Positions 1 through 58,110 of a stretch of 64,000 bases of DNA are shown here, in pieces (position 1 is the stretch's first letter; each line of letters starts with the position of its first letter). Both the position numbers and the translations under genes were made by a program. This DNA comes from Candidatus Methanomethylicia archaeon. GTDB taxonomy: Archaea; Thermoproteota; Methanomethylicia; Nezhaarchaeales; B40-G2. The stretch is from positions 11,316 to 75,315 of the forward strand of contig JAPDJI010000014.1 in NCBI GenBank assembly GCA_029259155.1, in the 5' to 3' direction. The notes below the pieces were generated by a model. The model was not told the DNA's origin and did no database searches. It was given only the letters and a program-made list of their open reading frames with translations.

Positions 1-213
1 AAGCCTTACTGAAGCCTCCTTCTCCCCTCTATTAACCACGTACTCCTCTCTTCCTCTAGAGTGTACCTTAAAGAGGGAGTAGCTTATGGCATCTAAGATG
101 CTGGTCTTGCCTGCCCCATTAGGGCCAACTATGGCTGTTACACCGAGGTCAAAACTGAGCGAAGTGTTCCTATGTGATATGAAGTTTCTAAGCTCCACCT
201 GATTTACGATCAA
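1..213 (-). CDS. rad50: Rad50 ATPase, 5' part (runs off the window start)
   Basis: Manual translation from TTG at 213 gives MIVNQVELRNFISHRNTSLSFDLGVTAIVGPNGAGKTSILDAI (SMC/Rad50 Walker A). Overlaps the end of mre11. Confidence 0.93.
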   Translation of the reverse strand, partial: MIVNQVELRNFISHRNTSLSFDLGVTAIVGPNGAGKTSILDAISYSLFKVHSRGREEYVVNRGEKEASVRL

Positions 214-1363: not shown

Positions 1364-1364
1364 G

Positions 1365-10383: not shown

Positions 10384-10932
10384 CTACTCGTCGTAAGCTC
10401 CTAGATCTTGCTGACATCTATGGTGGCAACCTTGCTCAAGCTCCAACCTTCTAAAAAGCTCTTTAAAATCCTCCTCAAGCCTACTTAAAGCAGCCCTAAC
10501 GGGCTTAGAAAGGCTCGCCTTAAAGGTATACGTTAAGCGTTTAGGCTGAATACCTATAAGCAGAAACTCTGAGTTGATGGATTCTTTAATGTAGGTGGCC
10601 AATAGTCTGAGAGAAGGTTTATGGGTATCAAGCGTTAAACCTGCAAGCTCGTCCTCACTATAGAGCTCTATGCTTCCAGGGGGTTTTCCTGCCTCTACAG
10701 CATCTACCACAACTACATGGCTTGGCTTAAACCTCCTAATACTTCCTGTATAGTTCTCAGGGTTCGATCCACAATCTAGAACCAATACCCAGCTTGGCTT
10801 AAACTTCCTAACTCTCCTAGCGAAGAGAGGACCTACGGCGTCGTCCCCCCTTAAAGGATTGCCAACTCCAAGCAACACTACCTTGCGTGCCCCTCGTAAC
10901 CTTCCGACTAACCTATCTAAGAGTGAGGCCAC
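10384..10932 (-). CDS. hycI: Hydrogenase maturation endopeptidase (HycI-like)
   Basis: GVGNPLRGDDAVG, PEN, VVVDA, THK, IGIQP. Confidence 0.92.
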   Translation of the reverse strand: MASLLDRLVGRLRGARKVVLLGVGNPLRGDDAVGPLFARRVRKFKPSWVLVLDCGSNPENYTGSIRRFKPSHVVVVDAVEAGKPPGSIELYSEDELAGLTLDTHKPSLRLLATYIKESINSEFLLIGIQPKRLTYTFKASLSKPVRAALSRLEEDFKELFRRLELEQGCHHRCQQDLGAYDE

Positions 10933-11045
10933 AGTGGCCTAGAACAAGAAACAAGCTTTAAGGGTTAACGCTTCAACAGTAGCTGAAGACGGGAAGGTAA
11001 GCTTAAAAATAGCTACTGATAGACATCTACCTGCGGTGGCTCAGC

Positions 11046-11411
11046 TTGCGTTTTCGGTTTGTGAGAGGTACGGTAGAGGAGGTCGACCTAGTTAACAGAA
11101 CTCTCACCATAATGGAGGACCTAAGGTGGGTCATGGAGACCTACATCCTACCAGAGAACTTGATCCACCTAATAGCGGAGAAAGGTAGGGACTGGATCGT
11201 AGATAATTTCATAGGTAAGAAGGTGAGAGCGCTAGCTGAGGGCATTGATACCGAGGAGAACGTGGGAGGTGTTCCTGTAAAGCGGGTGAAGTGGACCATT
11301 GTTAAGATGTTAGACCCTCCCATCTCCACAACCATACCTGTACCTGTTGCGCCTGAAACTACCCCCGTGAAACGGCGTAAGTCACGTGAAGAAGAGAGCA
11401 GCGAAGGATAA
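11046..11411 (+). CDS. Hypothetical protein, OB-fold-like N-terminus and Pro/basic/acidic tail
   Basis: GGTGG RBS with TTG start; beta-rich GTVEEVD..TLTI pattern. Confidence 0.55.
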   Translation: MRFRFVRGTVEEVDLVNRTLTIMEDLRWVMETYILPENLIHLIAEKGRDWIVDNFIGKKVRALAEGIDTEENVGGVPVKRVKWTIVKMLDPPISTTIPVPVAPETTPVKRRKSREEESSEG

Positions 11412-11426
11412 CCTGTAAAAATTTCT

Positions 11427-11843
11427 TTATCGTAGTTTTTCAATAGCTTTTACCACGGCGCTTAATATTGCTTCAGGTTTAGGTGGGCAGCCAGCTACAT
11501 AGACGTCTACAGGTATTACTTTATCTACAGGGCCAGCCACGGCGTAGCTTCCATCAAACACGTCTCCTGACACTGCGCAGTTACCTACCGCTACCACTAT
11601 TTTAGGGTCAGGTACCTGCTCATAGACGCGACGTAACCTATCTTTAATCTGTAACGTCACTACCCCTGTCACGAGTAGTATATCAGCATGTCTAGGCGTA
11701 CCCTTAAGGAGTGCACCAAACCTCTCAGCGTCGTAGAGGGGCGTTAGCGCAGCTACAACCTCTATATCACAGCCGTTACATCCACCACAGGGGAAGTGCA
11801 TGATCCATGGAGACTTCTTCCTAGCCCATGTAGAAAGATTCAT
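11427..11843 (-). CDS. Group 4 [NiFe]-hydrogenase small subunit (NuoB/HycG/EchC-like)
   Basis: CGGCNGCDIE, PRHAD, GNCA, GCPP. Confidence 0.95.
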   Translation of the reverse strand: MNLSTWARKKSPWIMHFPCGGCNGCDIEVVAALTPLYDAERFGALLKGTPRHADILLVTGVVTLQIKDRLRRVYEQVPDPKIVVAVGNCAVSGDVFDGSYAVAGPVDKVIPVDVYVAGCPPKPEAILSAVVKAIEKLR

Positions 11844-11849
11844 TTACGC

Positions 11850-12404
11850 TCACCCCATTTTTAACATAAACTTAGAGGCTTCCTTCAACGCTTCAGGTCT
11901 GGATCGGCATGGAGGACAAAGGGAGATGAGCTTACGGTACTCTTCGAGCGAAGCCCCCCGCTTATTTATCGACTCTTCCACTAGCTCAACTATCTTAGAT
12001 AGTTGCCTTGACGTAGTAAAGTAGCTGCCACAGGAAGCACAGGCAGCTAATTCAAGCTCTAATTTATCTTCAGCCTCTTCCTTGTTATAGGTCACTATCA
12101 CATACTCTCTAGATAGCTTGATGGCCTCCCAAGGACAGGTGTCTTCGCATCTACCGCAGAAGGCACAGTGTCCATGCCACACCCTTAAGACCCGCGTGGA
12201 GCCTTGATCCACCACGGTTATGGCTTTAGCCGGGCAAACTTGGCTGCATGCACCGCAACCTATGCATTTATCGCGGTCGTAGAGAGGCTTTCCTCTATAA
12301 CCTTCAGCCGGGGGTATTTCCTTATACGGGTAAGGCACTGTCGATGGCTTGAGGAAGCCTTTAAGGCTCTCCAACATGGTTCTTAGGTTTACCAAATTAA
12401 CCAC
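11850..12404 (-). CDS. Fe-S subunit (NuoI/HycF-like)
   Basis: CIGCGACSQVCP and CAFCGRCEDTCP, plus additional CxxC pairs. Confidence 0.92.
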   Translation of the reverse strand: MVNLVNLRTMLESLKGFLKPSTVPYPYKEIPPAEGYRGKPLYDRDKCIGCGACSQVCPAKAITVVDQGSTRVLRVWHGHCAFCGRCEDTCPWEAIKLSREYVIVTYNKEEAEDKLELELAACASCGSYFTTSRQLSKIVELVEESINKRGASLEEYRKLISLCPPCRSRPEALKEASKFMLKMG

Positions 12405-13324
12405 CCCGTGGAGGCTCTAATTAAATCTATCAAGGCTAGGGCTAAGCCCCAGGCCAAGAGGAATTTAAATGCTTGATCAACTCTTAGCCTAGTGCTCTGT
12501 GAATCTACGTAGGAGACTATGAACACTATTACGACGCATAACGCTAAGAAGCAGGCTACGTCTACGAACGGTATCCCTGTGAAACGCCCTCCCGCGAAGA
12601 ATAGGTCTACGGCTATGGCTGGAAGAACTATCCACCTGAACACATTGCCGAGCTCAAAGAGCCCTAGTAGGCTTCCTGAGTAATCTGTCAACGGTCCCGC
12701 TACGATCTCTACTTCGGCATCGGGTATATCAAAGGGTTTACGCCCAAGCTTGAGGACAAGAGCTATGAAGAAAGCTACCGCAGCGAACGGATAGCTAAAC
12801 AGGAAAGGTGTGCCGCTCTGAGCTGCTATGATGCTGGCCATACTTAACCCCCCGGCTGCCTTAACTAAAGCTATGGCAGAGACTACGAAAGGTATCTCCG
12901 AGGCGACTAGTAGGGTGAGCTCTCTGCTAGAACCTATAGCTCCGTAGGGGTTGCCTGAACTGGAGCCTGCTATGATAATGGATACGCCAGGGATGGCGAG
13001 CGCGATGAGCACTACCAGCACGTCTCCTGTTACGCTTAGAGGGGCAGCTACTCCTAGGGGAGTTAGTGCAAGTGCGGTTAGATATCCTGCTAAAGCTAGT
13101 AGGGGTGCTATTGTAAACCATGGTCTACTAGCAGCACTAGGCATTATGGTTTTCTTTGAAAATAGCTTAACGATGTCGGCGAGAGGCTGAATGATAGGTG
13201 GCCCTATCCTACACTGGAAGCGTGCCCTCAGTTTTCTGAAGAGCCAGTAGAATATCCAGCCAAAGATGAAGGCCAGAGCGAACTGGCAGGCTACTAACCC
13301 TGCTTGAAGTAGATAGTTGCTCAT
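12389..13324 (-). CDS. Membrane subunit (NuoH/HycD/EchB-like)
   Basis: RKLRARFQCRIGPP, RKPFDIPDAEVEIVAG. Confidence 0.93.
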   Translation of the reverse strand: MSNYLLQAGLVACQFALAFIFGWIFYWLFRKLRARFQCRIGPPIIQPLADIVKLFSKKTIMPSAASRPWFTIAPLLALAGYLTALALTPLGVAAPLSVTGDVLVVLIALAIPGVSIIIAGSSSGNPYGAIGSSRELTLLVASEIPFVVSAIALVKAAGGLSMASIIAAQSGTPFLFSYPFAAVAFFIALVLKLGRKPFDIPDAEVEIVAGPLTDYSGSLLGLFELGNVFRWIVLPAIAVDLFFAGGRFTGIPFVDVACFLALCVVIVFIVSYVDSQSTRLRVDQAFKFLLAWGLALALIDLIRASTGWLIW

Positions 13325-14484
13325 AACATCACCCTCCTCCTGGCTAAGTCCTCTAAGGTTACATGTTTCACGGACCCATTCTTCACATTAACCACTTCTA
13401 CCCTGTCGGTGCAGGCTATGCATGGATCGATGCTGGCGAAGATTATGGGGGCGTCGGCTATATTATAGCCTATTAACATGACTGGCACGCTATGGTTATT
13501 CGCTACGGAGGGCGTCCTTATCCTCACTCTTTCAGGTATGTTTGTGCCGTTGCTACGCATATAGTAGAAGAGCTCTCCTCTAGGTGCTTCAACCCGGCCG
13601 AAAACTTCCTTGCCCTTAACAGGCTCTTTAATCTCCTCCGCCATGATAGGGCCTTCAGGTATATCCTTAAGTATCTGCTTGATCATCTTAATGGACTCGA
13701 AGATCTCCATAAGCCTCACCAAGGTCTTAGCTAGCACGTCTCCTTGATCAAACACGGGTACAGACCATTCTAGTTTATCGTAGTTAGCGTATGGGTCATC
13801 TTTGCGCACATCTATGTCTATACCTGAGCCCCTCGCCGTAGGCCCTACGACACATAGTTTCTTGGCATCCTCTCTGGTTAAGACGCCTACCTCTGCTACC
13901 CTAGCCCTTATCATGCGGTCATTGACCACGGTCTCCTTTAATCTCTCAGCTGCCCGCTCAATCTCGACTAGCTGGGCTTCTACAAACTTAGCTAGCTTGG
14001 GGGTTAAGTCTCGCCTAACCCCTCCGATAGTGGGGTAGGCGTAGTTGACACGTTTCCCTGTCACGGCTTCGAGCACCCTCATCACTACCTCGCGGTCTCT
14101 CCACGCATGCATGAAGGCAGTATCAAACCCTATCAGGTGGAGGGCTACGCCGAACCATAGAAAGTGGCTATGAAGCCTCTCCAACTCTGCCACTAGGGCT
14201 CTAAGATACTTGGCTCTCTCAGGGGGCTCCACGTCTAGTAGGTCCTCGATGGTCTGAGTGCAGGCGGTAGCATGGGCGTCGCTGCAGATTCCACATACAC
14301 GTTCACATAGGAAGATTACTTGGTGAAAAGTTCTCCTGGAAGCTAGCCACTCTATACCTCGATGGAAGTAGCCTGTCTTAAGGTCAGCGCCTACGACGCG
14401 TTCACCTTCGACCTCCAGCCTTATGAAGAGGCTCTCCTTTAAGGCTGGGTGGAAGGGTCCTATAGGTATGCTACACGTGCTCAT
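13321..14484 (-). CDS. Group 4 [NiFe]-hydrogenase large subunit
   Basis: All four Ni-Fe Cys present: ERVCGICS (L1) and DPCIACTDR (L2), followed by a cleavable C-terminal extension. Confidence 0.96.
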   Translation of the reverse strand: MSTCSIPIGPFHPALKESLFIRLEVEGERVVGADLKTGYFHRGIEWLASRRTFHQVIFLCERVCGICSDAHATACTQTIEDLLDVEPPERAKYLRALVAELERLHSHFLWFGVALHLIGFDTAFMHAWRDREVVMRVLEAVTGKRVNYAYPTIGGVRRDLTPKLAKFVEAQLVEIERAAERLKETVVNDRMIRARVAEVGVLTREDAKKLCVVGPTARGSGIDIDVRKDDPYANYDKLEWSVPVFDQGDVLAKTLVRLMEIFESIKMIKQILKDIPEGPIMAEEIKEPVKGKEVFGRVEAPRGELFYYMRSNGTNIPERVRIRTPSVANNHSVPVMLIGYNIADAPIIFASIDPCIACTDRVEVVNVKNGSVKHVTLEDLARRRVML

Positions 14485-14488
14485 CTAG

Positions 14489-15370
14489 TCATCCCACCCT
14501 CTCAACGAGCTTGGTTAAAGGTATTCGGTGAAGGTCTAAGCCCACCTCCTCTGGCTTGTAGCCGAAGGAGAGGGCTAGGAGCTCAGATAGGTAAGCTACG
14601 GGTATGTTAAACTCGAGACTTGTCTTAGATTTAAGGTCGGCCTGCCCCACCTCGAACTGTAGATAGCAGGTGGGACACACCACAGCTATTAAGTCAGCAC
14701 CAGCTTCACTCACAGATTCAAGCTTCATCCTTAACGTCTCAGTTAAGGATAGCTCTTCATCGAAGCTTCTCTGAGGGAAGCCGCAGCAAAGTCTTTCAAG
14801 CTTATAGTCCACGACTTCAGCACCTATAGCCTTAACCAGCTCTTTAAAGGCCTCAGCTTTGAAGTACCAGTCTTCAGTCTTCTTTGACCTATAGAGGTGG
14901 CATCCTGGATGGACAGCCACCTTGATGCCTGTCAGCGGCTTAACCACAGCCTGCTTAATGCGATCTAATCCTTGCTCGTAGAGAGCTTCGGTGAGGTGTT
15001 TGACTTCCACGGTACCCTGATACTTCTTGCCTATCTTCGATAACTCCTTATTTACCTTCTCCTTAGCCTCAGGGTTTTCCTTTAAAAACTCGTTTGCCTC
15101 GAAGAGGGTTTCATAGCAACCGTTACACAAGGTCAGCACGGGAAGACCTAGGGCTTCAGCTATGGTAATGTTTCTGGCCGCCATCGTCAACCATAGCTCA
15201 CGGTCCAGCAGCCCTGTGTAGAAAGGCTCAGGACAACATGAAGTGCCCTCCATGTCTCGGTAGGGCACTCCAAGCTTTTCCAATACCTTGCGCGTAGAGG
15301 CTTCTATGTTAGAGAATCGGGTTTGAATCCAGCAGCTCCAAAACATGGCGTAGCCGGTCAACACAACCAC
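14489..15370 (-). CDS. hdrB: Heterodisulfide reductase subunit B-like protein
   Basis: Two CCG domains: WSC, CCPEP, CNGC, HPGCH, CCGFP, CPTCYLQFE. Confidence 0.9.
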   Translation of the reverse strand: MVVLTGYAMFWSCWIQTRFSNIEASTRKVLEKLGVPYRDMEGTSCCPEPFYTGLLDRELWLTMAARNITIAEALGLPVLTLCNGCYETLFEANEFLKENPEAKEKVNKELSKIGKKYQGTVEVKHLTEALYEQGLDRIKQAVVKPLTGIKVAVHPGCHLYRSKKTEDWYFKAEAFKELVKAIGAEVVDYKLERLCCGFPQRSFDEELSLTETLRMKLESVSEAGADLIAVVCPTCYLQFEVGQADLKSKTSLEFNIPVAYLSELLALSFGYKPEEVGLDLHRIPLTKLVERVG

Positions 15371-15371
15371 C

Positions 15372-16037
15372 TCAATACCTCAACTTCTTACGTCCCCAGT
15401 CGAACTTCACCTTCTCGTCGAACTTGAAGTCCTTCATCAACTTCTGCACTTCAGTTAACGACGCAGGGTCGACAGCAGTACATTTAACAGCTTCAGGAAG
15501 ACCTAGCTTAACGCGCTGCCTCTTAGCCGCGAAGGTCAAGGGGAAGCGCAGCCCCGTCGTCAACACCCCCTCTATCCCTGGCTTCTGAGTATCCGTCACA
15601 GGACCTTTCATAGGTCCTCTAAGCGGCTTAAGCTCCTCAGGCGCCTCAAAGGGTAGGGATATGTGACGTGGATCTGGATGTCCCTCAAACCGGATCCCAA
15701 ACATGTCTTGTACTTCCCTCTCTATCATCCCCGCCCCGGGTATGATGGGGGTGATGGAGTCTACCGTTGGCTTCTCCTTGGGCACCTTGAACTTGAGGTT
15801 CACGTAACTCCTCCCTATGGTCATATGGTAAATGAGCTCGAAATCTACTCCTAGGTCTACAGCTGAGATTGTGCAAAGCCTAGCGTTCTTCTCGTTGAAA
15901 AGCCACTCTACCATTTCCCTTAAGCAGTAGGGCTCTATGTATACTACGTACCTAGTCTCCCTGGCTTCTTGCACTTCGTGGACAACATCCTTAAACTTGT
16001 TCTTCAGCTCCTCAACAACCTCCTTCATCACCATCAC
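15372..16037 (-). CDS. NuoC/EchD-like subunit with HdrC-like C-terminal extension
   Basis: EREVQDMFGIRFEGHP NuoC motif; the last 64 aa resemble the HdrC C-terminus as recalled. Confidence 0.85.
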   Translation of the reverse strand: MMVMKEVVEELKNKFKDVVHEVQEARETRYVVYIEPYCLREMVEWLFNEKNARLCTISAVDLGVDFELIYHMTIGRSYVNLKFKVPKEKPTVDSITPIIPGAGMIEREVQDMFGIRFEGHPDPRHISLPFEAPEELKPLRGPMKGPVTDTQKPGIEGVLTTGLRFPLTFAAKRQRVKLGLPEAVKCTAVDPASLTEVQKLMKDFKFDEKVKFDWGRKKLRY

Positions 16038-18580
16038 CCCGCTAATGAACTAGCCAACCTCCAAGCCCAGTTGAATAAGGGGTCAGGAATCATGCCCAAA
16101 ACCACGCAGAGAGCAACTAAGACCAGGGCTATAGCGGCCAGACCTGTGGCTTCACGTATCTTCTCGGCTTCAGGTATGGGCTCACCCAAGAATGCTCCGC
16201 TGAATCCCTTGACCATAGCGGCCAGCAAGGTTACCGTGGAGAAAGCTACGATCAAGACTAAGTCCCACCTACCTGCCTCTGCTAAGGCTACGTAAAGCTG
16301 GTATTCGCTCCACCAAGTGTTGAAGGGAGGTATGCAGGCGAGGGCTAGGCTGCTAGCTATGAAGGCTAACGCGATCATGGGCATACGTCCAGCTAGCCCT
16401 TTGAAGCTATCCAGCCTTGTGGTTCCAGCTTTACTGGCCACCGCGGCTATGCAGTGCAGCATAGCTCATGAAGCTGGGATGATGTTAACCAAGTGGATCA
16501 ACCCGCCAGCTAGGCAGTGTACATAGCCTTCTACTCCTTTAGCTAGGTCGGCTGCACCTAGCTCCATGACCACGTCGCCGAGCTGAACCACGACCGCGGC
16601 TACGAAGAGTCTCTTTAGATCTCGGTGGTGAGCTGCCACCAGCGCACCGATGAGCATCATAGCTGTGCCCACGTAGAGGATAGGGGTTAGGAGACCCGTG
16701 GCTAAGGCTCCAGTTAAGGAGAGGAAGGCTATGCCTGCTAGGACGATTGCCCTAGTCTCTATGAACCTAGCTAACCCGAAGTAAGCTAGGTCAAATCCAC
16801 CACGCTTCATAAAGTTGTGGAGAGGTGCTATGAGTGAGGCAAAGTTAAGGTAGAAGGGGCCAGGCCCTACCTTGGCTTTCTCTAAGCTTAGGTAGGGCTC
16901 CTCGACCTCGCCCCCTGTGAAGGGCATGGCGGCGTAGGTGGTGACTACCATGGGTTTAAGGGAGGCATGGTATATAGCGTAGCCTACGAGCATAGAGATT
17001 AAGATGATGAGGGTGAGGCCCAGGGCTTCATAGAACCCTATCGGGGTAGCGAAGCCTAAGAGGAAGTAGCTGGGGACCCCAGCTCCCACTATTAAGGCCA
17101 CAGCCGGGTTGATTAGGGTATCGAGCAACAATCTTGGCGCCACGCCGAGGACCACGCAGAGAGCAGCTAGGATGACGATGGGTATCTGCATGGTGAGAGG
17201 TACTTCTTTAATCCCCTCCAACCTACTAGGCCTAACCCCGAAGAAGGCTGAGTGAAGCATCTTTAGCACGGAAGCGAGGGTTATTGCGCTGCCGAGGAGG
17301 GCTATTGCACAGTATAGCGCATACATTGCGCCTACAAGGCCCCCTTCAGCTAAGGCCCTCTGGATAGCGCCCTCATAGATGAGTAGCTTGCTAGCAAAGC
17401 CGTTAAGCGGCGGGATTCCTGCCAAGGCTAGGCCGCCGATGATCATGCAGGCAGCGGTCACAGGCATGTTACGTGCTAAGCCACCCATCTCGCTCAGCTT
17501 CTTGGTGCCAGTTACGTAGATTAGGCAGCCAGCACCGAGGAAGAGGAGGCCTTTGAAGATGGCGTGGTTAAAGAAGTGGAAGAGGCCTCCAGCTATGCCC
17601 ACTGCGGTACCTATTCCTAAGCCGAGGAACATGTAGCCTATCTGAGCGGCGGTGTGGTAGGCTAGGAGCCTTTTGACGTCGTCTTGTAGCCAAGCCCCTG
17701 CAGAACATATGATTAAGGTGAAGGCCCCCACCGTGGCCATGGCAATATCCATGGGAGTCTTAAGCGGTGTTAAAGCAGCTAGCTGAGCAGATCTAGCCAT
17801 TAAGTAAACCCCGGCCTTAACCATGGCTGCTGCGTGGAGGAAGGCGGTCACGGCAGAGGGAGCTACCGTAGCGTCTGGGAGCCAGTTATGGACAGGGAAT
17901 TGCACCGACTTAGCCATGGAGGCGACGAGGAAGAGAGGCATCGCTGCGGCTAAAGCCAGTAGGGGGGCAGCTCCGTTTAAGCTGGGTAGGTCTAGGCTAG
18001 TCTTCCCCTGCGCCAGTAGGACTAAGATGCCCAAGATGATGCCTGCGCCGCAAGCATGCGTCATTATCAAGGCCTTCATGGAAGCCCTGGAGCTCTCAAC
18101 CTTACGTATGTAGAACCCTATGAGGCCATAGGAACATAGCCCCACAAGCTCCCAGAATACGAAGAGTAATAACAGGTTCCCCGCTGAGAAGAGACCTATC
18201 ATGGATCCTTGAAAGAGCAGCATCAGTGCAAAGTACCTGGTGTGCCCCTCAGCTTCATGAGCCATGTCGGCTACCGAGTATAGGATCGCCATGAAGCCGA
18301 AGAAGCCGGACATCACTACAAACAACATCGATAAGGCGTCGCCGTAGAGCAGAAGGCCTATGTTTATTCCCTGAGCTCTAAGAAAACCAGCTTCTATGGC
18401 TATTGGTCCTAGCTGTAAGACTGAGGCTGTGGCCCATAGCGAGGCTAGGAAGGTTAGAAGCGTGAAGAGGGTTGCAAGGTAGGCCTTAACTTTATAGGAA
18501 GCTTTATGGAGTATCGCAACTAAGAAGCTTCCCGCTAAAGGTAGGGTGACCGAGAGTATGAATGCCAGCTGAGCATTCAT
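16034..18580 (-). CDS. Antiporter-like subunit (NuoL/MrpA/HycC-like) interrupted by an in-frame TGA at 16466-16468
   Basis: FVFWE, AKSVQFP, WLPDA, AAMVKAG, PPLNGF. The 704-aa and 142-aa ORFs are in the same frame (TGA GCT ATG). Confidence 0.88.
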
Positions 18581-19041
18581 GGTCTTACCCCACTAATCTT
18601 AGATCTTAACTCTAAGGCTATCTCTCTTGGGTAAGCCCTTAAGGCTCCCGAGGAGCAGACCTTTACGCATTCAGGGTCGCCATCACATAGATCACACTTA
18701 ACCGACACTCTAAGCTCTTCATTGAAAGCGGGGACTGATAGTGGGCATGCATAGTTGCAGGTTTTACACCCTATACATTTCACTTGATTTATCCTAACTA
18801 TGCCTGCCTCATCCTTCCAAATAGCTTCACTTAGACAGGCAGCCATGCAGAGAGGTTCTTCGCAGTGTAGGCAGTAAATAGCTTGGAACGTGCCTGTAGC
18901 TGGGTCGAAGACGTGTTTTATGTATGACTTAGCATACCCTGCTTCCCCATAGTGCTTATAGCTACAGGCAACCTCGCAAGCCCTACATCCAGTGCATTTG
19001 GATGGGTCAAACACCAGCTTGAGCTCCACCACCTTCCTCAT
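18577..19041 (-). CDS. 4x[4Fe-4S] electron-transfer subunit (HycB/CooF/DmsB-like)
   Basis: CTGCRACEVAC, CLHCEEPLCMAAC, CIGCKTCNYACP, KCDLCDGDPECVKVC. Confidence 0.92.
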   Translation of the reverse strand: MRKVVELKLVFDPSKCTGCRACEVACSYKHYGEAGYAKSYIKHVFDPATGTFQAIYCLHCEEPLCMAACLSEAIWKDEAGIVRINQVKCIGCKTCNYACPLSVPAFNEELRVSVKCDLCDGDPECVKVCSSGALRAYPREIALELRSKISGVRP

Positions 19042-19066
19042 CCTCCCCGGGAGCTGCCTTATCGTT

Positions 19067-19091
19067 CGAAATTCGCTTTAAAGCAGTTTCG
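19067..19091 (-). promoter_or_regulatory. TATA-like box inside an imperfect palindrome upstream of the hydrogenase operon
   Basis: cgaaattcgcTTTAAAgcagtttcg, about 35-40 bp upstream of ATG 19041. Confidence 0.4.
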
Positions 19092-19159
19092 CTCCTGTCC
19101 ACATCGATTTTATCTAGAGCAATAGCTCTCAGGGTTACAGTTCTCATTAAACTTGAGAA

Positions 19160-19182
19160 TAAAAAACGGTGGAGCAAAAAAG
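19160..19182 (-). terminator. Oligo-U terminator after the flavoprotein gene
   Basis: Two A6 tracts on + (U6 on -) just downstream of the stop at 19192. Confidence 0.55.
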
Positions 19183-19191
19183 CGGAGTGGC

Positions 19192-20532
19192 TTAAGCTTT
19201 CTTTAAGGCAGCCTCCGCTGCTAGCGTTATGGCGCTCCAAGTATCGGCTAAAGGAGGCGTATAGCAGGTATCAGCTTTAGCTAGCTCATAAGCAGTCATA
19301 CCCTTCTGGATAGCTAACGACAGTGCGTCTACGCGAGGCGCTACACCTTCACCGCCTAGGATTTGAGCGCCGATGAGCTTCATGGAAGCCTTCTCGAAGA
19401 TCAGCTTCACCCTTATGTCCTTAGCTCCAGGATAGTACTCCGCCCTTGTCTTCCAAGGTATAGAGCCGACAACAACCTCCATGCCTGCTTGCCTGGCTTG
19501 CCACTCAGTCAGGCCTGTGAAGCCCACTTCAACGTCGAATAGCTTTGAAACCGCTGAACCTAATACCCCTGGGAAGGTAGCATAGCCGCCTGCAGCGTTT
19601 ATGCCTGCCACCTTACCCTGCTTCACTGCCGTGGTTCCTAGCTGACAAAGTACGGGCTGCATGGTGACTAAGTGTACGCTCTCCACGCAGTCACCTGCTG
19701 CATAGATGTCTTCTACCGTAGTCTTCATCCTGGCGTCTACCTTAATCCCTCCAGTTACACCTAGCTTACATCCAGCCTTGACCGCTAGGTCGGTGTTGGC
19801 TCTGACGCCTATCGCCATGACTACAAGGTCTGCGTCAACCTGTTCGCCTCCAGCAGCTACTGCCTTAACGTGGTCATCGCCGAGTATCTCATCTGCCTTC
19901 GTGTTTAACATCAACTTGACGCCGTGAGCAGATATCTTGGTTTGAAGCAGCTTAGCCATGTCCTCATCTAGGATAGGTCTAAGAACTTGGTGTAGAGCTT
20001 CAATGACAGTTACCTTTACTCCTCTCTTCACCAACCCTTCAGCGGCTTCCAGCCCTACTAAGCCGGCGCCTATGACCACGGCGCTTTTAGCCTTCAAGGC
20101 TTCTTCAAGAATAGCTGAGGCATCAGGTATTGTTCTAAGCGGGTACACACCTTTCTTATCGTAGCCCTTAATACGGGGGACCACTGCTCTGGCTCCTGTG
20201 GTTAAGATTAAGGAGTCGTACTCGAAGGTTTCCTCCTTTCCATCAGGCCCTACTGCTTTAACTACCTTAGCGCTATGGTCTATCTCTGTGACGGTGGTCT
20301 TGAGATGTAAGTCTATCTTCATCATTTTGTAGAACTCTGACTTATAGATGATGATATGGTCAAACCCTTCGATGTCGCCGCCTATCACGAAAGGTAGGGC
20401 ACAGCGTGAGTAGGCTGGTTTATCCTCAGCATCGATAACTTTTACCTCAACTTCTCTGCTGGTCCGTCTAGCATTGAGCGCAGCATCTAATCCAGCAGCT
20501 CCACCTCCGATCACAACTACTCGTTTAGCCAT
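19192..20532 (-). CDS. CoA-disulfide reductase/NADH oxidase-family flavoprotein
   Basis: GGGAAG, single redox Cys YSRCALP, GAGLVG, AAGDC, C-terminal CYTPP. Confidence 0.9.
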   Translation of the reverse strand: MAKRVVVIGGGAAGLDAALNARRTSREVEVKVIDAEDKPAYSRCALPFVIGGDIEGFDHIIIYKSEFYKMMKIDLHLKTTVTEIDHSAKVVKAVGPDGKEETFEYDSLILTTGARAVVPRIKGYDKKGVYPLRTIPDASAILEEALKAKSAVVIGAGLVGLEAAEGLVKRGVKVTVIEALHQVLRPILDEDMAKLLQTKISAHGVKLMLNTKADEILGDDHVKAVAAGGEQVDADLVVMAIGVRANTDLAVKAGCKLGVTGGIKVDARMKTTVEDIYAAGDCVESVHLVTMQPVLCQLGTTAVKQGKVAGINAAGGYATFPGVLGSAVSKLFDVEVGFTGLTEWQARQAGMEVVVGSIPWKTRAEYYPGAKDIRVKLIFEKASMKLIGAQILGGEGVAPRVDALSLAIQKGMTAYELAKADTCYTPPLADTWSAITLAAEAALKKA

Positions 20533-20556
20533 CTTCCTCAGCCTTTCTTAGAGAGA

Positions 20557-20964
20557 CTACATAATGGTCTTAAGCCACCCAGCCGCCTTATCGGCGGTCA
20601 TTAAATTCTTTAGCTCTTCATCGAGGTTGCTAGCCTCTATTACCACCAGCCAGCCCTTACCGTAGGGGTCCTCGTTAAGTACTGAAGGGTTGCTTTGAAC
20701 CTCAGCGTTAACCTCCTTAATGGTTCCGGATATCGGTGATATTAGGTCTACGGCTGCTTTTAACGACTCGGCGCTGCCGAAGGCGTCGCCAACGTTCACG
20801 GTAGAGCCGGGATCTAGCAGGCTTATGTTTATGACCTGTTTCAGGTTCTTCTGTGCATAGTCTGTTATGCCAACTCTAGCCTTGCCGTCCTCCACCTTAA
20901 CCCACACGTGGTTCTCTGAGTAATACAGTCCTTCGGGAACCTCGTATTCTCCCACCGTAACCAA
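20557..20964 (-). CDS. gcvH: Glycine cleavage H-protein / lipoyl carrier
   Basis: HVWV, GITDYAQ, lipoyl-Lys in ESLKAA, NEDPYGKGW. Confidence 0.95.
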   Translation of the reverse strand: MVTVGEYEVPEGLYYSENHVWVKVEDGKARVGITDYAQKNLKQVINISLLDPGSTVNVGDAFGSAESLKAAVDLISPISGTIKEVNAEVQSNPSVLNEDPYGKGWLVVIEASNLDEELKNLMTADKAAGWLKTIM

Positions 20965-21224
20965 ACTTTACGCACCCCTTTGAGCTTCGGTTGTAAGGTG
21001 TATTTAGAGTTTCTGCGCTGATTCCATGAACTAATGTAAACGTGAAGTCTTTTCGGGAAGAACTGGTAGGGCTGAGGCCTTAATTCAGCTACGAGAAATG
21101 ATGGATCGGGGATAAGGGTTAAGAGGGGGATCGCTAAATCACTTCAAGTGAGTTGCCTAAAAATACAAAGCCTGGGAGGATCTAAAGCTCTCAGGCTTCT
21201 GGATAGCTTTGCTATGAGGGGTCA

Positions 21225-22346
21225 TTGATGTCGGAGGAGCTAAGAAGAGAGCTATCCTCCTGTACAGATTGTAGGATGTGTGACAATGTCTGTCCCTTCT
21301 ACCTCGCTACGGGAGACGAGTCCATAGGTGCCTGGAACAAGGTTAAAGTTGCTCAAGCTGTGCTAGGGGGCGATAGGCAGGTCAGCGATGTATTGAGAGA
21401 ACTGTACCTATGTACCTGCTGCGGAACCTGTGAGCTTGCCTGCCCCTTTAATATCCCGATATCTGAGGCAGTTAGAGCTTTAAGGAGCTTAGCTGTCAAG
21501 GAGCGTTGCGCTCCGGAACCTGTCGTTAAGCTGTGTGAAGGGATAATCAACCAGGGATCGATGACTGGTGAGGGGAAGGAGTTCTGGAGGAGCTGGATCC
21601 CCACTGAGGTGAATTTCCCTAGTGAAGCTGAGTACCTCTACCTTGTAGGTTGCATGATCCCCTTTAGGCTCCGTGATGTAGGCAGGGCTACGGTGGATAT
21701 CTTGAAGGCAGCTGGCGTGGACTTCACAATTTTAGGTGAGGATGAGAGGTGTTGCGGCCTCCTCCTCGTGGATCACGGCTTCCTAGAAGAAGCTAAGACG
21801 GTCGCGGAGAGAAACCTATCGAGCGTAGAAGGGAGGAAGCCTAGCGTCGTTCTGATGGCGTGCGCCGCCTGCTACTATACGTACAAGCATGTTTACCAGA
21901 GGATCTATAGGAAACCTGAGTTTGAGGTGATACACGTAGCGGAGGCCTTAGCCGACCTCATCGATCATGGGAGGATAAGCTTCAAGAAGCGGATTGATGA
22001 GAAGGTGGCCTTCCTTGACCCCTGCCACTTCGTGAAGGTCTCTGGTAAATACGAGATTCCCAGGAAGGTGATCGAGAACATTCCCGGGCTGAAGTTAATT
22101 GAGTTCCCGAGAAGCAGGGCTGAAGCGCTTTGTTGCGGCGCACCCGGAGGTATTAGGCTGGTGTCTAGGGATGTAGCGTTCTCCGCGGCTGGAATGATAG
22201 TTAAGGAGGCCCTCAAGCTGGAGGTTTCAAGGATCGTAACCTCCTGTCCGCTCTGCATGTATCAGCTTTCATGGGCTGCTGAAAAGCTGGGGGCGGGGAG
22301 GTTAAAGGTAACTGACCTTCCCTTGTTAGTGAAGGAAGCTCTCTGA
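21225..22346 (+). CDS. Fe-S oxidoreductase, HdrD/GlpC-like
   Basis: Two ferredoxin motifs (CTDCRMCDNVCP, CTCCGTCELACP) plus two CCG domains. Confidence 0.88.
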   Translation: MMSEELRRELSSCTDCRMCDNVCPFYLATGDESIGAWNKVKVAQAVLGGDRQVSDVLRELYLCTCCGTCELACPFNIPISEAVRALRSLAVKERCAPEPVVKLCEGIINQGSMTGEGKEFWRSWIPTEVNFPSEAEYLYLVGCMIPFRLRDVGRATVDILKAAGVDFTILGEDERCCGLLLVDHGFLEEAKTVAERNLSSVEGRKPSVVLMACAACYYTYKHVYQRIYRKPEFEVIHVAEALADLIDHGRISFKKRIDEKVAFLDPCHFVKVSGKYEIPRKVIENIPGLKLIEFPRSRAEALCCGAPGGIRLVSRDVAFSAAGMIVKEALKLEVSRIVTSCPLCMYQLSWAAEKLGAGRLKVTDLPLLVKEAL

Positions 22347-22415
22347 ACTTTGATCTCCACGCCCCGTTCTCATGGCTTATCACGCATGTAAAGCTTTAAT
22401 GAAGAATTAATTAGG

Positions 22416-23450
22416 ATGGTAGACGTGAGACTGGTCGACGAGATGAGGCACTTGAAGCCTAGGTTAGTCAGGGTTTCCTACGGCTCAGCGGTAGTCTTAG
22501 GCTTAGCTAGGGGATGGCTTAAGACTAAACCGACCACCAGCTATCTCTTAACTTACTTAGAAGAGCGCTGCCTAGCTAACTGCGGTTTCTGTCCTCAAGC
22601 TAAAGATAGTAATGCTAGCCTAGACCTCCTATCCAGGGTGGAGTGGCCTCCTTACCCTGCTCAAGAAGTAGTGGAGAGGGCCGTGAACGCTTTAAGGCGA
22701 GGCTTATTGAAGAGAGCCTGCGTCCAAGTTGTTAACAGGCCTGAGGGCTTAAATCAGGCTTTATGGCTCGTGGAACATGTAAGCCTAGGAGGAGAATTAC
22801 CTGTATCAGTTTCTATACCTCCGTTAGGGCGTAGTGGGCTTGAAGCCTTTAAACGGACAGGGGCAGGCAGAGTCTCCATAGCGTTAGATGCTGCTAATCG
22901 CAGGGTCTTCGACGAGGTTAAAGGACTTAATGCTGGTGGGCCCTACACTTGGGATGGACACTGGAATGCGCTTAGAAAAGCCCTCGAGGTTTTTGGCCCT
23001 GGAAACGTGACGACCCACCTTATTGTGGGTCTTGGGGAAACTGAGAGAGACCTAGCACGCGTCATCGATAAGCTATTATCGATAAAGGTACTCCCAGCCC
23101 TCTTCGCCTTCACTCCTATACCTGGTACTAGGCTTGAAGCGTTACCTCAACCTGAAGTAGCAAGCTATCGCCGCATTCAGCTTGTGAGACACTTACTGGT
23201 AAAGGGTATAGTTTCTCTTAAGGACCTGGAGTTTAACCATGTAGGGAGGCTTGTTCGCATAAAAGCTTCCAGCGAGGAGGTAATGAGAGAGATCGAGAGC
23301 GGTGAACCTTTCGAGACTTCAGGGTGTCCTGGATGTAATAGACCTTTTTACAACGAGAAACCTGGAGGGCCTCTCTATAATTACCCAAGACCTTTAAGCA
23401 GAAAAGAGGTGGAGGAGGCCTTAAGCCTGCTGAGAGACGTGGTAGCCTGA
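22416..23450 (+). CDS. lipS2: Archaeal-type lipoyl synthase subunit LipS2 (radical SAM)
   Basis: CLANCGFC and TSGCPGCNRP, matching the TxGCPxC(N/D)RP motif of Thermococcus LipS2. Confidence 0.85.
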   Translation: MVDVRLVDEMRHLKPRLVRVSYGSAVVLGLARGWLKTKPTTSYLLTYLEERCLANCGFCPQAKDSNASLDLLSRVEWPPYPAQEVVERAVNALRRGLLKRACVQVVNRPEGLNQALWLVEHVSLGGELPVSVSIPPLGRSGLEAFKRTGAGRVSIALDAANRRVFDEVKGLNAGGPYTWDGHWNALRKALEVFGPGNVTTHLIVGLGETERDLARVIDKLLSIKVLPALFAFTPIPGTRLEALPQPEVASYRRIQLVRHLLVKGIVSLKDLEFNHVGRLVRIKASSEEVMREIESGEPFETSGCPGCNRPFYNEKPGGPLYNYPRPLSRKEVEEALSLLRDVVA

Positions 23451-23559
23451 GAAGGAAATATTAAGGAAGTTGAAGGCTTATCAGCGACCTATATTGGGCG
23501 CTAAGGTCGTAGAGGAGTAAAAGATTATCTAATAGAGCTCTTTCTTTTGGGGGGCTGAA

Positions 23560-24009
23560 ATGAGGGTAGACAAGATGCAACCTGAATTAACTTTCCATGT
23601 ACAGGTAGAGTGGGATGGCTCTACTGGAGGTGAGGCTAAACTCTCAGTACAGCCTCCCTTAAGGTTTGATACCCCAAGGGACTTCGGAGGCTCTGAAGCT
23701 GGCTATTGCCCAGAAGAGCTTTTCTTAGCGTCGTTGGCTGCTTGCTTAACCACAACCTTTGCTTATCTAAGGCCTAAGCTAGGCTTAGAGGCTTCCTCGC
23801 TGAGGATAAATGCCACTGACCGCGTCGAGTTTAGAGACGGAGGCTACATGGTGACCGAGGCCTGGATGAAGGTGAAGCTGGAAGTTAGGAAAGGTCAGGC
23901 TGAGTTAGCGAGACAATGCGTGGAACTTGCTGCTGAGTACTGCCATGTAACTAGGTCAATAAGGAGATGTATACCTGTTCACTTAGAAGTAGAGGTGGTA
24001 GAGGTTTAA
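23560..24009 (+). CDS. OsmC/Ohr family peroxiredoxin
   Basis: PEELFLASLAAC and a second Cys in YCHV. Confidence 0.88.
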   Translation: MRVDKMQPELTFHVQVEWDGSTGGEAKLSVQPPLRFDTPRDFGGSEAGYCPEELFLASLAACLTTTFAYLRPKLGLEASSLRINATDRVEFRDGGYMVTEAWMKVKLEVRKGQAELARQCVELAAEYCHVTRSIRRCIPVHLEVEVVEV

Positions 24010-24133
24010 TGAATAGGTCCATCCCCAACATTTACGAATTTTCTTTCAAGTCCTCTGCGGCGCATTGATTAATCTAAAAGGCTTAATTAGATCTATGAGA
24101 GGATGAAATAATCCACCTAAGAGGTGGTGAAGG

Positions 24134-24910
24134 CTGACTGAGGAGTGGAGGCTTCTGAAGACAGGTAGTGGTGATGCCTACTGGAACATGGCTGTAGACG
24201 AAGCTATCTTAACAGCGAGAACTGAAGGCAAAGTGCCGAATACCTTGCGCCTATACACTTGGAAGCCCTCTGCAGTATCAATAGGCTTTTTCCAGAGCTT
24301 ACACCACGAAGTGGACTTGGAGGAATGTCGTAATCTAGGAGTAGACGTAGTTAGACGCATAACTGGTGGAGGGGCAGTGTTTCATGACAGTGACGGTGAA
24401 GTGACCTATAGCGTAGTGGTGGCGGAGGCTGACTTGAAACGTATAACTCCTCACTCCACTATACAGGAATCCTATGAAGCTCTATGTAAAGGTTTGCTGG
24501 AAGGGTTGAAAGAGCTAGCTATAGCAGCTGAGTTTAAACCAATAAACGATATACTCGTTGCTGGACGTAAGATCTCAGGCAGTGCTCAGACTAGGCGTAG
24601 GGGCATTATTCTTCAGCATGGCACTTTACTGCTTAAAAGCGATATAAGAACCATGTTCAGGGTGTTGAAGGTCTCCAAGGAAAAAATAAGCGACAAGCTG
24701 ATCAAGGAGGTGGAGGAGAGAGTTACCAATATATATCGTGAAACTGGCCGTGAACTAGCTGTCGAGGAGGTTATAGGTGCTCTCGTCAAAGGTTTTCAAC
24801 GCGCATTAGGGGTCAAATTAAAGGAGGGCGAGCTGTCCCCATATGAGCTTAGCTTAGCTGAAGAGTTTAAGCATAGATATGCCTCAAAGGAGTGGCTTGA
24901 GCTTAGGTGA
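24134..24910 (+). CDS. lplA: Lipoate-protein ligase catalytic subunit (LplA-N)
   Basis: RRITGGGAVFHD, KISGSAQ, QHGT. The conserved WRLL...DAYWNMAVDEA N-terminus extends to an in-frame CTG at 24134. Confidence 0.9.
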   Translation: MTEEWRLLKTGSGDAYWNMAVDEAILTARTEGKVPNTLRLYTWKPSAVSIGFFQSLHHEVDLEECRNLGVDVVRRITGGGAVFHDSDGEVTYSVVVAEADLKRITPHSTIQESYEALCKGLLEGLKELAIAAEFKPINDILVAGRKISGSAQTRRRGIILQHGTLLLKSDIRTMFRVLKVSKEKISDKLIKEVEERVTNIYRETGRELAVEEVIGALVKGFQRALGVKLKEGELSPYELSLAEEFKHRYASKEWLELR

Positions 24911-25209
24911 ACGAGTTGAGGGTCGAGGCTGAACATAAGGTAGCTGGGGGTAAACTGGTTAGAGTAGAGCTTGAAGTAGAGGAAGGAGTGATTAAGAGGA
25001 TCAAGATAACCGGTGACTTCTTTCTTTACCCAGAGGAAGCCGTTTTTAAGCTCGAGGAGGCTCTAAAAGGAGTTCGTGCTAGCAGTGAACTTGAAAAGCT
25101 CATAGAGCATGAACTATCTAAGCAGGGAGCTGAGCTCTTAGGGGCGTCTCCGGCAGACATAGCTACGGCTATTAATAAGGCTTTAACCTCCATTAATCCT
25201 TGGCAATGA
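24907..25209 (+). CDS. lplB: Lipoate-protein ligase accessory subunit (LplA-C/LplB)
   Basis: KVAGGKLVRV, ITGDFFLYPEE; GTGA overlap with lplA. Confidence 0.88.
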   Translation: MNELRVEAEHKVAGGKLVRVELEVEEGVIKRIKITGDFFLYPEEAVFKLEEALKGVRASSELEKLIEHELSKQGAELLGASPADIATAINKALTSINPWQ

Positions 25210-38232: not shown

Positions 38233-38274
38233 CCTCAACCACTCGAGAGTTTTACCCATGACTGAAGGAGCTTC
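38130..38274 (+). repeat. 145-bp direct repeat, copy 1
   Basis: catggttaaaagagcc...ctgaaggagcttc, identical by eye to 45299-45443. Confidence 0.95.
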
Positions 38275-46427: not shown

Positions 46428-46466
46428 GAGCGAGAATATTATATTCTGCCTCGCTTAGTTTACCGA

Positions 46467-46528: not shown

Positions 46529-46537
46529 ACTTTTAAG

Positions 46538-58109: not shown

Positions 58110-58110
58110 C

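Follow-up and report, generated by a model that had tools for sequence, protein, structure and literature searches.

Among described systems, the one closest to the locus reported here is the Ehe complex of the Culexarchaeia, an HdrB-associated hydrogenase with gcvH nearby that is related to the Ehd, Ehd-like, Drh and Ehg complexes. In the accessible text of Kohtz et al. 2022 (PMC9723716) the GcvH co-located with Ehe is proposed as a disulfide carrier for HdrB, in a lineage without coenzyme M (CoM) and coenzyme B (CoB). We analyzed a stretch of 64,000 nucleotides from a Candidatus Methanomethylicia archaeon of the Nezhaarchaeales (genome G000, contig C4, positions 11316-75315; the window). It carries an HdrB-bearing group-4 [NiFe] hydrogenase (module A, 10384-19041) directly beside a module with a GcvH-type lipoyl carrier, a flavoprotein resembling coenzyme A disulfide reductases (CoADR) and lipoate-assembly genes (module B, 19192-25209). 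Our tentative interpretation, to which we give somewhat less than an even chance, is that the two modules share lipoyl-GcvH as one redox carrier. The idea of GcvH as a disulfide carrier is not new, since it was published in 2022 for the Culexarchaeia (PMC9723716). What is added here is a lineage with a fully orphaned GcvH, the CoADR-like partner and its wide spread, the lipoate-assembly genes on Ehe-type clusters, and a GcvH-GlcD-HdrD association shared with Bathyarchaeia.

The G000 assembly comprises 1.55 Mb on 47 contigs and is 94.0% complete and 2.6% contaminated. Genes were called from open reading frames (ORFs) and from Pfam and NCBIfam profiles, the NCBIfam scores being judged against curated cut-offs. 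All genes named in a first-pass annotation of the region were recovered at their positions in this way. The family set consisted of four genomes, G000 and its relatives G001, G002 and G003 (92-98% complete). Gene contexts were mostly called by tblastn with window proteins at E<=1e-5 to 1e-8, at which divergent neighbors can escape.

The window differs from Ehe in several respects. Its hydrogenase genes follow the order fer4_11-nuoL-nuoC-hdrB-nuoD-nuoH-nuoI-nuoB as in Bathyarchaeia, whereas Ehe is arranged gcvH-fer4_11-hdrB-nuoB-... In the HdrB tree the window protein groups with the hydrogenase-embedded HdrB of Bathyarchaeia (support 90/92), and the HdrB of Ehe, of Hermodarchaeota and of methanogen Ehd complexes form a neighboring clade. 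This tree, from which one row of <250 aa (L023) was dropped, holds no HdrABC-type reference of classical methanogens, and whether an HdrB is canonical lies beyond its reach. No homologue of SdhA, CdhA or HdrA2B2C2 occurs among the genes annotated around the window cluster (45354-64000 was not annotated), only GcvH being nearby. This GcvH is of the CoADR-linked kind and lies behind a likely terminator, with lipoate-assembly genes and OsmC adjacent, in a genome in which no glycine cleavage system was found.

Module A consists of nine tightly packed minus-strand genes (11427-19041) followed by hycI. The full gene order is fer4_11-nuoL-(small antiporter-like ORF)-nuoC-hdrB-nuoD-nuoH-nuoI-nuoB, with hdrB between the NuoC- and NuoD-like genes. 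The operon had been described as eight genes with an intact Ni-Fe site and an HdrB; site and HdrB stand, and the count becomes nine including hdrB, plus hycI. In the large subunit the Ni-Fe ligands are intact (RVCGICSDAH for RxCGxC, DPCIACTDR for DPCxxC), and the four ligand cysteines are invariant in 7/7 aligned relatives. These motifs, the NuoB/C/I/H-like and antiporter subunits, and the HycI and HypE-like/HypF maturation proteins are those of a group-4 membrane-bound [NiFe] hydrogenase. The small antiporter-like ORF is separate in the family relatives too, and homologues of the Fer4_11 protein sit between gcvH and hdrB in Ehe-type loci. The nearest large subunits beyond the family relatives are from Bathyarchaeia, 56-62% identical and with the same gene order. 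Of the named loci, L046 (Candidatus Nezhaarchaeales archaeon) is closest, its large subunit being 81% identical to that of the window. In a sample of 401 genomes of the phylum, large subunits at least 55% identical occurred only in the family and in G285. The cluster unites [NiFe] hydrogenase genes, HdrB and an ion-antiporter subunit, which is the core of the Ehd/Ehe/Ehd-like complexes as defined in PMC9723716. We infer the label 'Ehd-like', because the large subunit was compared without the reference sequences of the published tree. We predict with high confidence that the hydrogenase of module A is functional, bears HdrB, translocates ions and is of the Ehd-like kind.

Two irregularities were seen around these genes. 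A gap of 494 bp (10933-11426) separates hycI from the NuoB-like gene and holds only an opposite-strand ORF of 121 aa that has no family match; the same gap measures 57 bp in G003. In G003 the HypE-like gene (L036:18342-19359) matches as two overlapping pieces, 18342-18665 and 18661-19359, which suggests a frameshift or an assembly error.

The HdrB of module A has 293 aa and matches the solved methanogen HdrB chains 5odc_B (250 bits) and 9sfi_C (257 bits) from end to end. It contains two CCG motifs with five cysteines each, as for non-cubane [4Fe-4S] clusters, and these cysteines (C13, C45, C46, C82, C85, C157, C195, C196, C232 and C235) are invariant in 13/13 sequences; the protein looks catalytically complete. 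In length and in both CCG motifs it resembles the HdrB of the methanogen HdrABC-MvhAGD complex, but it is predicted as a subunit of a membrane hydrogenase, no HdrA is encoded in the cluster, and neither methyl-coenzyme M reductase (MCR) nor ComA was found in G000. The full-length match to methanogen chains and the complete set of cluster cysteines would suit the classical role of an Ehd-type H2:CoM-S-S-CoB oxidoreductase that has been proposed for Methanomethylicia, in which GcvH would take no part. Such a role would also agree with the published Ehd proposal, as far as the accessible text of PMC9723716 goes, and with the position of hdrB beside hydrogenase genes in methanogenic relatives (family f5). 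We nevertheless regard it as very unlikely. McrA was found in 0/4 family genomes and ComA was not found in G000 (the search for ComA covered G000 alone), which makes CoM-S-S-CoB an unlikely substrate of HdrB. Moreover, the protein scores below the equivalog cut-off of TIGR03288, and PMC12700198, in its accessible part, describes non-methanogenic sister families without mcr and without most methanogenesis markers. The main body of that paper mentions neither GcvH nor lipoate.

In module B, gcvH is followed after 24 bp by the gene for a CoADR-like flavoprotein, and transcribed divergently from this pair are genes for an HdrD-like protein, LipS2, OsmC and the split lipoate-protein ligase LplA/LplB. 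The position of the hydrogenase directly downstream of the pair and the divergent orientation of the other genes were as first annotated. The lipoyl lysine of GcvH is invariant in 10/10 aligned sequences and present in 49/50 rows of a wider alignment. The exception is the GcvH of G008 in family f3 (L162, ~9738-10130), in which Arg replaces the lipoyl lysine (ESVRA vs ESVKA in the 49 other rows), and this protein may not be lipoylatable. The CoADR-like protein scores below the curated cut-offs of both TIGR03385 (390 bits, <579) and NF007123 (362 bits, <458). Among solved structures it is closest to NoxA-3 (6pfz) and to the CoADRs 4fx9 and 3kd9; the fold families match, and in the alignment the cysteine of YSRCALP falls opposite the active-site region of NoxA-3. 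The OsmC-family protein contains cysteines in AACLTT and EYCHVT, which may be the catalytic pair. Together with LipS1, which is encoded on contig C21 (243 bits, cut-off 230), LipS2 and LplAB make the lipoate-assembly pathway complete. Module B is predicted with high confidence to be a system built around lipoyl-GcvH that brings its own assembly genes and a reductase linked to NAD(P)H, in a cell without a classical use of lipoate.

The genome inventory bears on this last point. As first annotated, the window contains no gcvP, gcvT or 2-oxoacid dehydrogenase gene, and a profile search of the whole G000 assembly found no GcvP (PF02347), GcvT (PF01571) or 2-oxoacid_dh E2 core either. In the same search a true dihydrolipoyl dehydrogenase (Lpd) was absent, the sole TIGR01350 match being the CoADR-like gene with 139 bits against a cut-off of 409. 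G000 has three GcvH genes, and the only other match of a lipoyl-domain search was a GcvH. Across the class, GcvH was detected in 46/46 genomes and GcvP in 29/46. Because no P, T, E2 or true Lpd was found in G000, neither glycine cleavage nor a 2-oxoacid dehydrogenase would be there for its GcvH to serve. It is accordingly highly improbable that GcvH and the flavoprotein are the H and L proteins of an ordinary glycine cleavage system whose P and T genes fall into the 6% of the genome missing from the assembly. It is true that GcvH scores above both curated GcvH cut-offs and that the CoADR-like protein may act as L protein in some genomes of other families (see below). However, GcvP was found in 0/4 family genomes and in 0/6 genomes of the sister family f3, GcvT has no match in G000, 10/17 genomes of other families with a comparable pair also lack a detectable GcvP, and three GcvH copies would be unusual for such a system.

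Dedicated sulfur oxidation was considered as well. In the sHdr-LbpA system a GcvH-like lipoyl protein works with Hdr-like CCG enzymes instead of P, T and E2, and the same sLpl(AB)-LipS1/LipS2 assembly is used, as set out in the accessible text of PMC6067878 and PMC10332631. The window shares the GcvH-like carrier, the LplAB and LipS1/LipS2 assembly proteins and the Hdr-like CCG proteins with that system. The comparison, drawn in the first-pass annotation, fails on TusA (PF01206) and DsrE (PF02635), neither of which has a match in G000 (an sHdrA-type subunit was not searched for). In addition, the window HdrB is a predicted hydrogenase subunit outside any sHdrAB1B2C1C2 set, the apparent partners are a hydrogenase and a GlcD-type dehydrogenase, and the host is an anaerobic hydrothermal archaeon. 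A function of this GcvH as LbpA in sHdr-type sulfur oxidation therefore has next to no likelihood.

CCG proteins are numerous for a 1.55-Mb genome, with 7 HdrD-like (E<=1e-20) and 4 HdrB-like matches in G000. One HdrB paralog, on contig C9, is divergent to a Fer4_11 gene.

The two other GcvH genes of G000 lie in a second lipoyl locus on contig C21 (L004:5756-11136). There an enoyl-CoA hydratase gene (ech), a gene for a GcvH of 145 aa and the LipS1 gene stand on one strand, with a divergent gene for a GcvH of 154 aa opposite. Converging on this third gcvH are the gene for a protein of 242 aa with two CCG domains (C21 8561-9289) and that for a 615-aa fusion of a GlcD-like FAD dehydrogenase with an HdrC-like Fe-S domain (C21 9289-11136). 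The arrangement recurs in 4/4 family genomes; in G002 it is divided between two contigs. Family f2 shows hdrD-gcvH-glcD-ccg on one strand, and in G014 hdrB adjoins gcvH. Pairs of GlcD and HdrD, which resemble lactate dehydrogenases, have been noted in Bathyarchaeota and sulfate reducers. The C21 locus and the loci L232-L234 are like them in having an FAD-linked 2-hydroxyacid dehydrogenase beside an Fe-S/CCG protein; they differ in that gcvH stands directly beside the pair in G000 and in three Bathyarchaeia genomes. Among the papers searched we found none that joins HdrD, GlcD and GcvH, a negative on which the supplements of PMC9723716 and PMC12700198 may bear.

Gene strings that combine gcvH with an HdrB-bearing hydrogenase were found in two other lineages, namely in nine Ehe-type genomes and at one Bathyarchaeia locus. 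The nine genomes belong to families f4, f7 and f8, which are without mcr, and carry gcvH-fer4_11-(small ORF)-hdrB-nuoB-nuoL-nuoC-nuoD-nuoH-nuoI on one strand, matching the published Ehe layout; in one of them (G021) a contig end interrupts the string and hdrB lies on a different contig. The string of G031 passes directly into lplB-lipS2-lplA-lipS1. lplB and lipS2 also lie within 3 kb of it in G025 and G015 and were not detected there in G018. The Ehe-type genomes carry canonical GcvH and GcvP as well, and G023, which is without Ehe-type HdrB, has canonical GcvH only. In the Bathyarchaeia genome G408 (L232), Pfam matches revealed fer4_11-hdrB-antiporter-NuoCD(NiFe)-NuoH-NuoI-NuoB-GcvH-GlcD-HdrD on one strand, where gcvH is flanked by gaps of 38-85 bp. 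This string unites the contents of the two G000 loci. In G406 and G409, which carry Ehd-like hydrogenases, gcvH stands beside glcD and hdrD.

Outside the family, the hydrogenase comparison covered the 80 loci closest by large subunit. The hydrogenase string included hdrB in 13/80 (L046, nine Bathyarchaeia, one Asgard and two Hermodarchaeota), and the locus included gcvH in 3/80 (L046, one Bathyarchaeia locus at a distance of 3.5 kb, and one locus without hdrB). In the two Hermodarchaeota loci (L060, L061) the fer4_11-hdrB-nuoC-nuoD...nuoB strings end at a convergent CoADR-like gene, 40-43% identical, and no gcvH was detected.

A GcvH profile search of the phylum returned genes of the family and of the Ehe-type strings as its top 13 matches. 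The next 17 matches, from six other families and chosen by score alone, were examined (L201-L217). A CoADR-like gene, 45-57% identical, lies directly beside gcvH in 16/17 of these genomes (L202-L217), with gaps of ~13-50 bp, or ~280 bp in L216, where the genes converge. GcvP was detected in 7 of the 17 genomes and not found in 10. An Lpd-like match of at least 330 bits was present in 7, and G221 had a truncated one of 258 bits. In the remaining 9 the best Lpd-like match was a CoADR-like gene, in 8 of them the one adjoining gcvH. Since 5/7 GcvP-positive genomes with the pair lack an Lpd-like match of at least 330 bits, the CoADR-like flavoprotein may replace the L protein there. No conserved third gene accompanies the pair in these families; the candidates proved to be housekeeping neighbors (PGK, GAPDH and others). 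OsmC was dismissed as an obligatory partner as well. It occurs in 11/17 of the genomes and on the contig of the pair in 0/11, and G002, within the family, has no OsmC anywhere. What is conserved is therefore the two-gene unit of gcvH and CoADR-like gene itself; it often occurs independently of glycine cleavage and has no general tie to either OsmC or this hydrogenase. No publication on it was found under 'CoA disulfide reductase', although the supplements of the cited papers may bear on it. In G290 (C1:1162-2878) a true Lpd (441 bits, above the cut-off) is encoded directly next to OsmC, as would suit a lipoyl-dependent OsmC system distinct from that genome's gcvH-CoADR pair.

Phylogenetic trees of GcvH followed these contexts. 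In a 50-row tree the 20 genes beside CCG/Hdr genes separate from the 30 others with support 98/97. A more careful 75-row tree, from which five long-branch rows were left out (three of G285, one of G407 and one of G410), contains an Ehe-linked clade with support 100/100 and a GlcD/HdrD-linked clade with support 100/98, Bathyarchaeia genes included. The context labels on the GcvH tree require 6 changes, compared with a mean of 33 for shuffled labels, and 0/200 shuffles were as low. A quick 80-row tree gave a super-clade of all non-canonical GcvH with a value of 94 in the Shimodaira-Hasegawa-like approximate likelihood-ratio test (SH-aLRT), but in the 75-row tree this grouping, at 98/97 with 50 rows, reached only 47/79. 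The claim of a single robust super-clade was dropped and limited to the subclades.

The unstable support of the super-clade is one of a number of points that weigh against a common carrier for the two modules. Gene order is conserved in 4/4 family genomes, with hycI...fer4_11-CoADR-gcvH followed by lipS2-(osmC)-lplA-lplB (split over two contigs in G001). Conservation of the neighborhood had been put forward as a check of the link, but because the flanks are collinear as well, over ~30 kb (1365-29975), the adjacency of modules A and B is not independent evidence, and family synteny was discarded as an argument for linkage. The HdrD-like gene occupies its position only in G000 and is absent there in 3/3 family relatives; its ortholog in G001, 63% identical, is ~54 kb away from gcvH, and in G002 and G003 no match exceeds 33%. 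Eight of the nine closest Bathyarchaeia hydrogenase loci are without gcvH in the locus fetched (four of these loci being <9 kb), and the single gcvH among the nine falls among the canonical genes. The window GcvH itself groups with CoADR-linked and not with hydrogenase-linked genes, its nearest rows outside the family being G017 and G128. Families f20 and f25 have the gcvH-CoADR pair without this hydrogenase (0/26 and 0/8 at E<=1e-120), whereas G285 has the hydrogenase while all its examined GcvH genes lie outside the specialized clades. HdrB is about as similar to methanogen HdrB as to others, and its sequence therefore does not point to a new substrate; the many CCG paralogs in these genomes make accidental adjacency likelier. 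Furthermore, the lactate/pyruvate couple is more positive than that of lipoamide, and a step from hydroxyacid to lipoyl would need help. A complex prediction for HdrB with GcvH scored 0.01, which is no answer, and was used neither for nor against binding.

The region between the modules belongs to the same side of the argument. On the minus strand, right after the CoADR stop codon, two T6 runs (19181-19176 and 19166-19161) are followed by TTTAAAG at 19082-19076 and by GGAGG ahead of the ATG at 19041. The U-tract noted there earlier (near 19160-19182) is borne out and fits separate transcripts, as a likely archaeal terminator followed by a separate promoter for module A. A promoter and terminator scan of the bacterial type gave no terminator at 19042-19191, but its model is bacterial and uninformative for an archaeon. 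In G001 an extra ORF of 190 aa (L157:8835-9407) lies between the CoADR-like gene and fer4_11; it is not there in the window, G002 or G003.

These points could well be explained by two unrelated neighbors, the main rival reading, which we rate as scarcely less probable than a shared carrier. Here gcvH and the CoADR-like gene, with OsmC in the family, would form an NAD(P)H-driven lipoyl redox or peroxide-detoxification system. HdrB would act on another acceptor, for example polysulfide, the disulfide or persulfide of CoA, or the disulfide of a small protein, and its acceptor might not be a disulfide in the first place. In 16/17 genomes of other families the gcvH-CoADR pair occurs by itself among housekeeping genes, and those families are without this hydrogenase in the sample searched. 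Terminator and promoter, the additional ORF in G001, the general synteny of the family and the Bathyarchaeia hydrogenase relatives that mostly have no neighboring gcvH all agree with it. OsmC is adjacent in 3/4 family genomes, and the Trichomonas hydrogenosome provides a precedent by combining OsmC with an incomplete glycine decarboxylase complex of H and L proteins only. The window likewise encodes OsmC close to an H protein that has no P or T partner and to a flavoprotein reductase linked to NAD(P)H. This precedent and the lipoyl-dependent Ohr/OsmC peroxidases are cited in the accessible parts of Dahl-laboratory papers, and a preprint of that laboratory, in its accessible part, names an OsmC-adjacent GcvH-like protein as the probable electron donor of OsmC. 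The analogy is incomplete, as the window reductase belongs to the single-cysteine CoADR/Nox family and is not a two-cysteine Lpd. OsmC is also an irregular partner, missing in 1/4 family genomes and never adjacent outside the family. Two unrelated systems would moreover leave the hydrogenase HdrB without an identified substrate in a genome without detected McrA and ComA, and would explain neither gcvH inside the HdrB-hydrogenase strings of two other lineages nor why G000 has three GcvH genes, of which two adjoin a GlcD-CCG enzyme.

The suggestion of the first-pass annotation that HdrB here acts on lipoyl-GcvH thus holds in part. The orphan GcvH, the absence of detected McrA and ComA and the presence of gcvH in HdrB-hydrogenase strings of two lineages speak for it, but CoADR-linked GcvH is widespread without the hydrogenase and most Bathyarchaeia loci do without gcvH. 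That the HdrB of module A uses lipoyl-GcvH may be put at a little less than an even chance. The gene content, the intact motifs, the lack of classical lipoate enzymes and the recurrence of gene contexts are observed directly; from them we infer every electron-transfer step, above all that between HdrB and lipoyl-GcvH.

With lipoyl-GcvH as the shared carrier, the system would work as follows. HdrB, with its two CCG sites for non-cubane clusters, would ride on the peripheral arm of the module A hydrogenase, and because the arm carries HdrB, H2/H+ chemistry would be coupled to the reduction or oxidation of a disulfide/dithiol. LplAB, LipS1 and LipS2 would build lipoyl-GcvH, drawing on module B and on LipS1 and the two GcvH genes of C21. 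The CoADR-like flavoprotein would equilibrate lipoyl-GcvH with NAD(P)H in place of the missing dihydrolipoyl dehydrogenase, and OsmC could draw on dihydrolipoyl-GcvH for peroxide reduction. Because no glycine cleavage system, 2-oxoacid dehydrogenase, MCR or ComA was found, we propose lipoyl-GcvH as a stand-in for the heterodisulfide of methanogens. The CCG enzymes trading electrons with it would be the hydrogenase HdrB, the HdrD-like protein and the GlcD-CCG dehydrogenase of C21. Electron flow may run either way, as H2 oxidation pumping ions or as gradient-driven H2 release from dihydrolipoamide. The partners are all small and soluble, and expressing and assaying them would put the proposal to a direct test.

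A broader version of the shared-carrier proposal, which we consider unlikely to hold as a whole, would make non-canonical GcvH a family of protein-bound lipoamide carriers that replace CoM-S-S-CoB for Hdr-type CCG enzymes in non-methanogenic Thermoproteota. Its subclades would be wired to three kinds of oxidoreductase, namely the CoADR-like NAD(P)H reductase, the GlcD-HdrD 2-hydroxyacid dehydrogenase and the HdrB of ion-translocating [NiFe] hydrogenases. The result would be a new lipoyl-based respiratory or fermentative chain, operating as H2:lipoyl respiration or as ion-gradient-driven electron flow from hydroxyacid to H2. The lineages concerned would be the Nezhaarchaeales relatives, Culexarchaeia-like lineages and Bathyarchaeia, with G000 as the clearest case, all three partners being kept and none of the classical lipoate enzymes.

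What serves as substrate for HdrB-type enzymes after the loss of methanogenesis is a question raised, in the accessible text of PMC9723716 and PMC12700198, for Culexarchaeia, Bathyarchaeia and the non-methanogenic relatives of Nezhaarchaeia. G000 offers a clean test case. The classical uses of lipoate are gone, yet the genome keeps three GcvH, a full LipS1/LipS2-LplAB set, a flavoprotein reductase and about ten CCG proteins, one of which is built into a hydrogenase predicted to pump protons or sodium ions. Should lipoyl-GcvH turn out to be the carrier, energy would be conserved here in a new way, on a protein-bound cofactor, and the case would give a concrete example of Hdr machinery re-used after the loss of MCR. 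Useful by-products are the gcvH-CoADR pair found across many Thermoproteota families, often without GcvP, and the gcvH-GlcD-HdrD association shared with Bathyarchaeia. The coordinates of the genes discussed are collected in Table 1.

Table 1. Genes and intergenic region of the hydrogenase and lipoyl-carrier modules and of the hydrogenase maturation genes in the window.
Feature	Position	Strand	Basis
HycI-type hydrogenase maturation endopeptidase	10384-10932	-	PF01750 58 bits; TIGR00072 104 bits > cut-off 47
NuoB-like [NiFe] hydrogenase small subunit	11427-11843	-	PF01058 114.9 bits; 84-88% identity in family relatives
2x[4Fe-4S] NuoI/HycF-like subunit	11850-12404	-	Fer4 families; NF009053 (formate hydrogenlyase Fe-S subunit) 139 bits < cut-off 204
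NuoH-like membrane subunit	12389-13324	-	PF00146 229.7 bits
Group-4 [NiFe] large subunit with C-terminal extension for HycI cleavage	13321-14484	-	PF00346 + PF00374
HdrB-type subunit, two CCG domains	14489-15370	-	PF02754 twice; TIGR03288 292 bits < cut-off 345
NuoC-like subunit	15372-16037	-	PF00329 89.3 bits
Small antiporter-like membrane ORF	16034-16462	-	PF00361 27 bits, only the profile end (positions 218-292) of Proton_antipo_M
NuoL-like antiporter subunit, presumed ion-translocating	16466-18580	-	PF00361 202.6 bits + PF00662
Fer4_11 poly-[4Fe-4S] protein, first gene of the hydrogenase string	18577-19041	-	PF13247
Intergenic region, two T6 runs, then TATA-like box and Shine-Dalgarno-like site	19042-19191	-	read from sequence
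Single-cysteine CoADR/NADH-oxidase-family flavoprotein	19192-20532	-	Pyr_redox_2 + Pyr_redox_dim
GcvH-type lipoyl carrier, non-canonical, CoADR-linked	20557-20964	-	PF01597 126.9 bits; NF002270 140 bits (>117); TIGR00527 above cut-off
HdrD/TfrB-like protein	21225-22346	+	Fer4_8 + two CCG domains
LipS2 lipoyl synthase	22416-23450	+	NF053743 327.7 bits > cut-off 270
OsmC-family putative peroxiredoxin	23560-24009	+	PF02566 56.1 bits; all NCBIfam subfamily models below cut-off
Split lipoate-protein ligase, LplA and LplB	24188-24910 (LplA); 24907-25209 (LplB)	+	PF21948 186 bits; NF053749 (LplB) 95.8 bits >65; NF053750 (LplA_large) 259 bits <480
HypE-like protein	26575-27606	-	AIRS + AIRS_C domains
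HypF	27651-29975	-	HypF domain set

A scan of the window against Rfam gave no match. Further along the window, 36766-44209 encodes a B12-binding radical-SAM protein, a ChlD-like AAA+/VWA subunit and a CobN/Mg-chelatase divided between two overlapping ORFs (38417-40789 and 40782-42302); for a non-methanogen this is a large set of chelatase genes, and the GC content rises here to 0.54-0.55. The stretches 188-3903 and 9142-10278 together hold genes for an Mre11-like phosphoesterase, HerA and NurA, a DNA-end-resection cluster, as well as a weak match to the Tubulin/FtsZ family (35.8 bits) just upstream of hycI.

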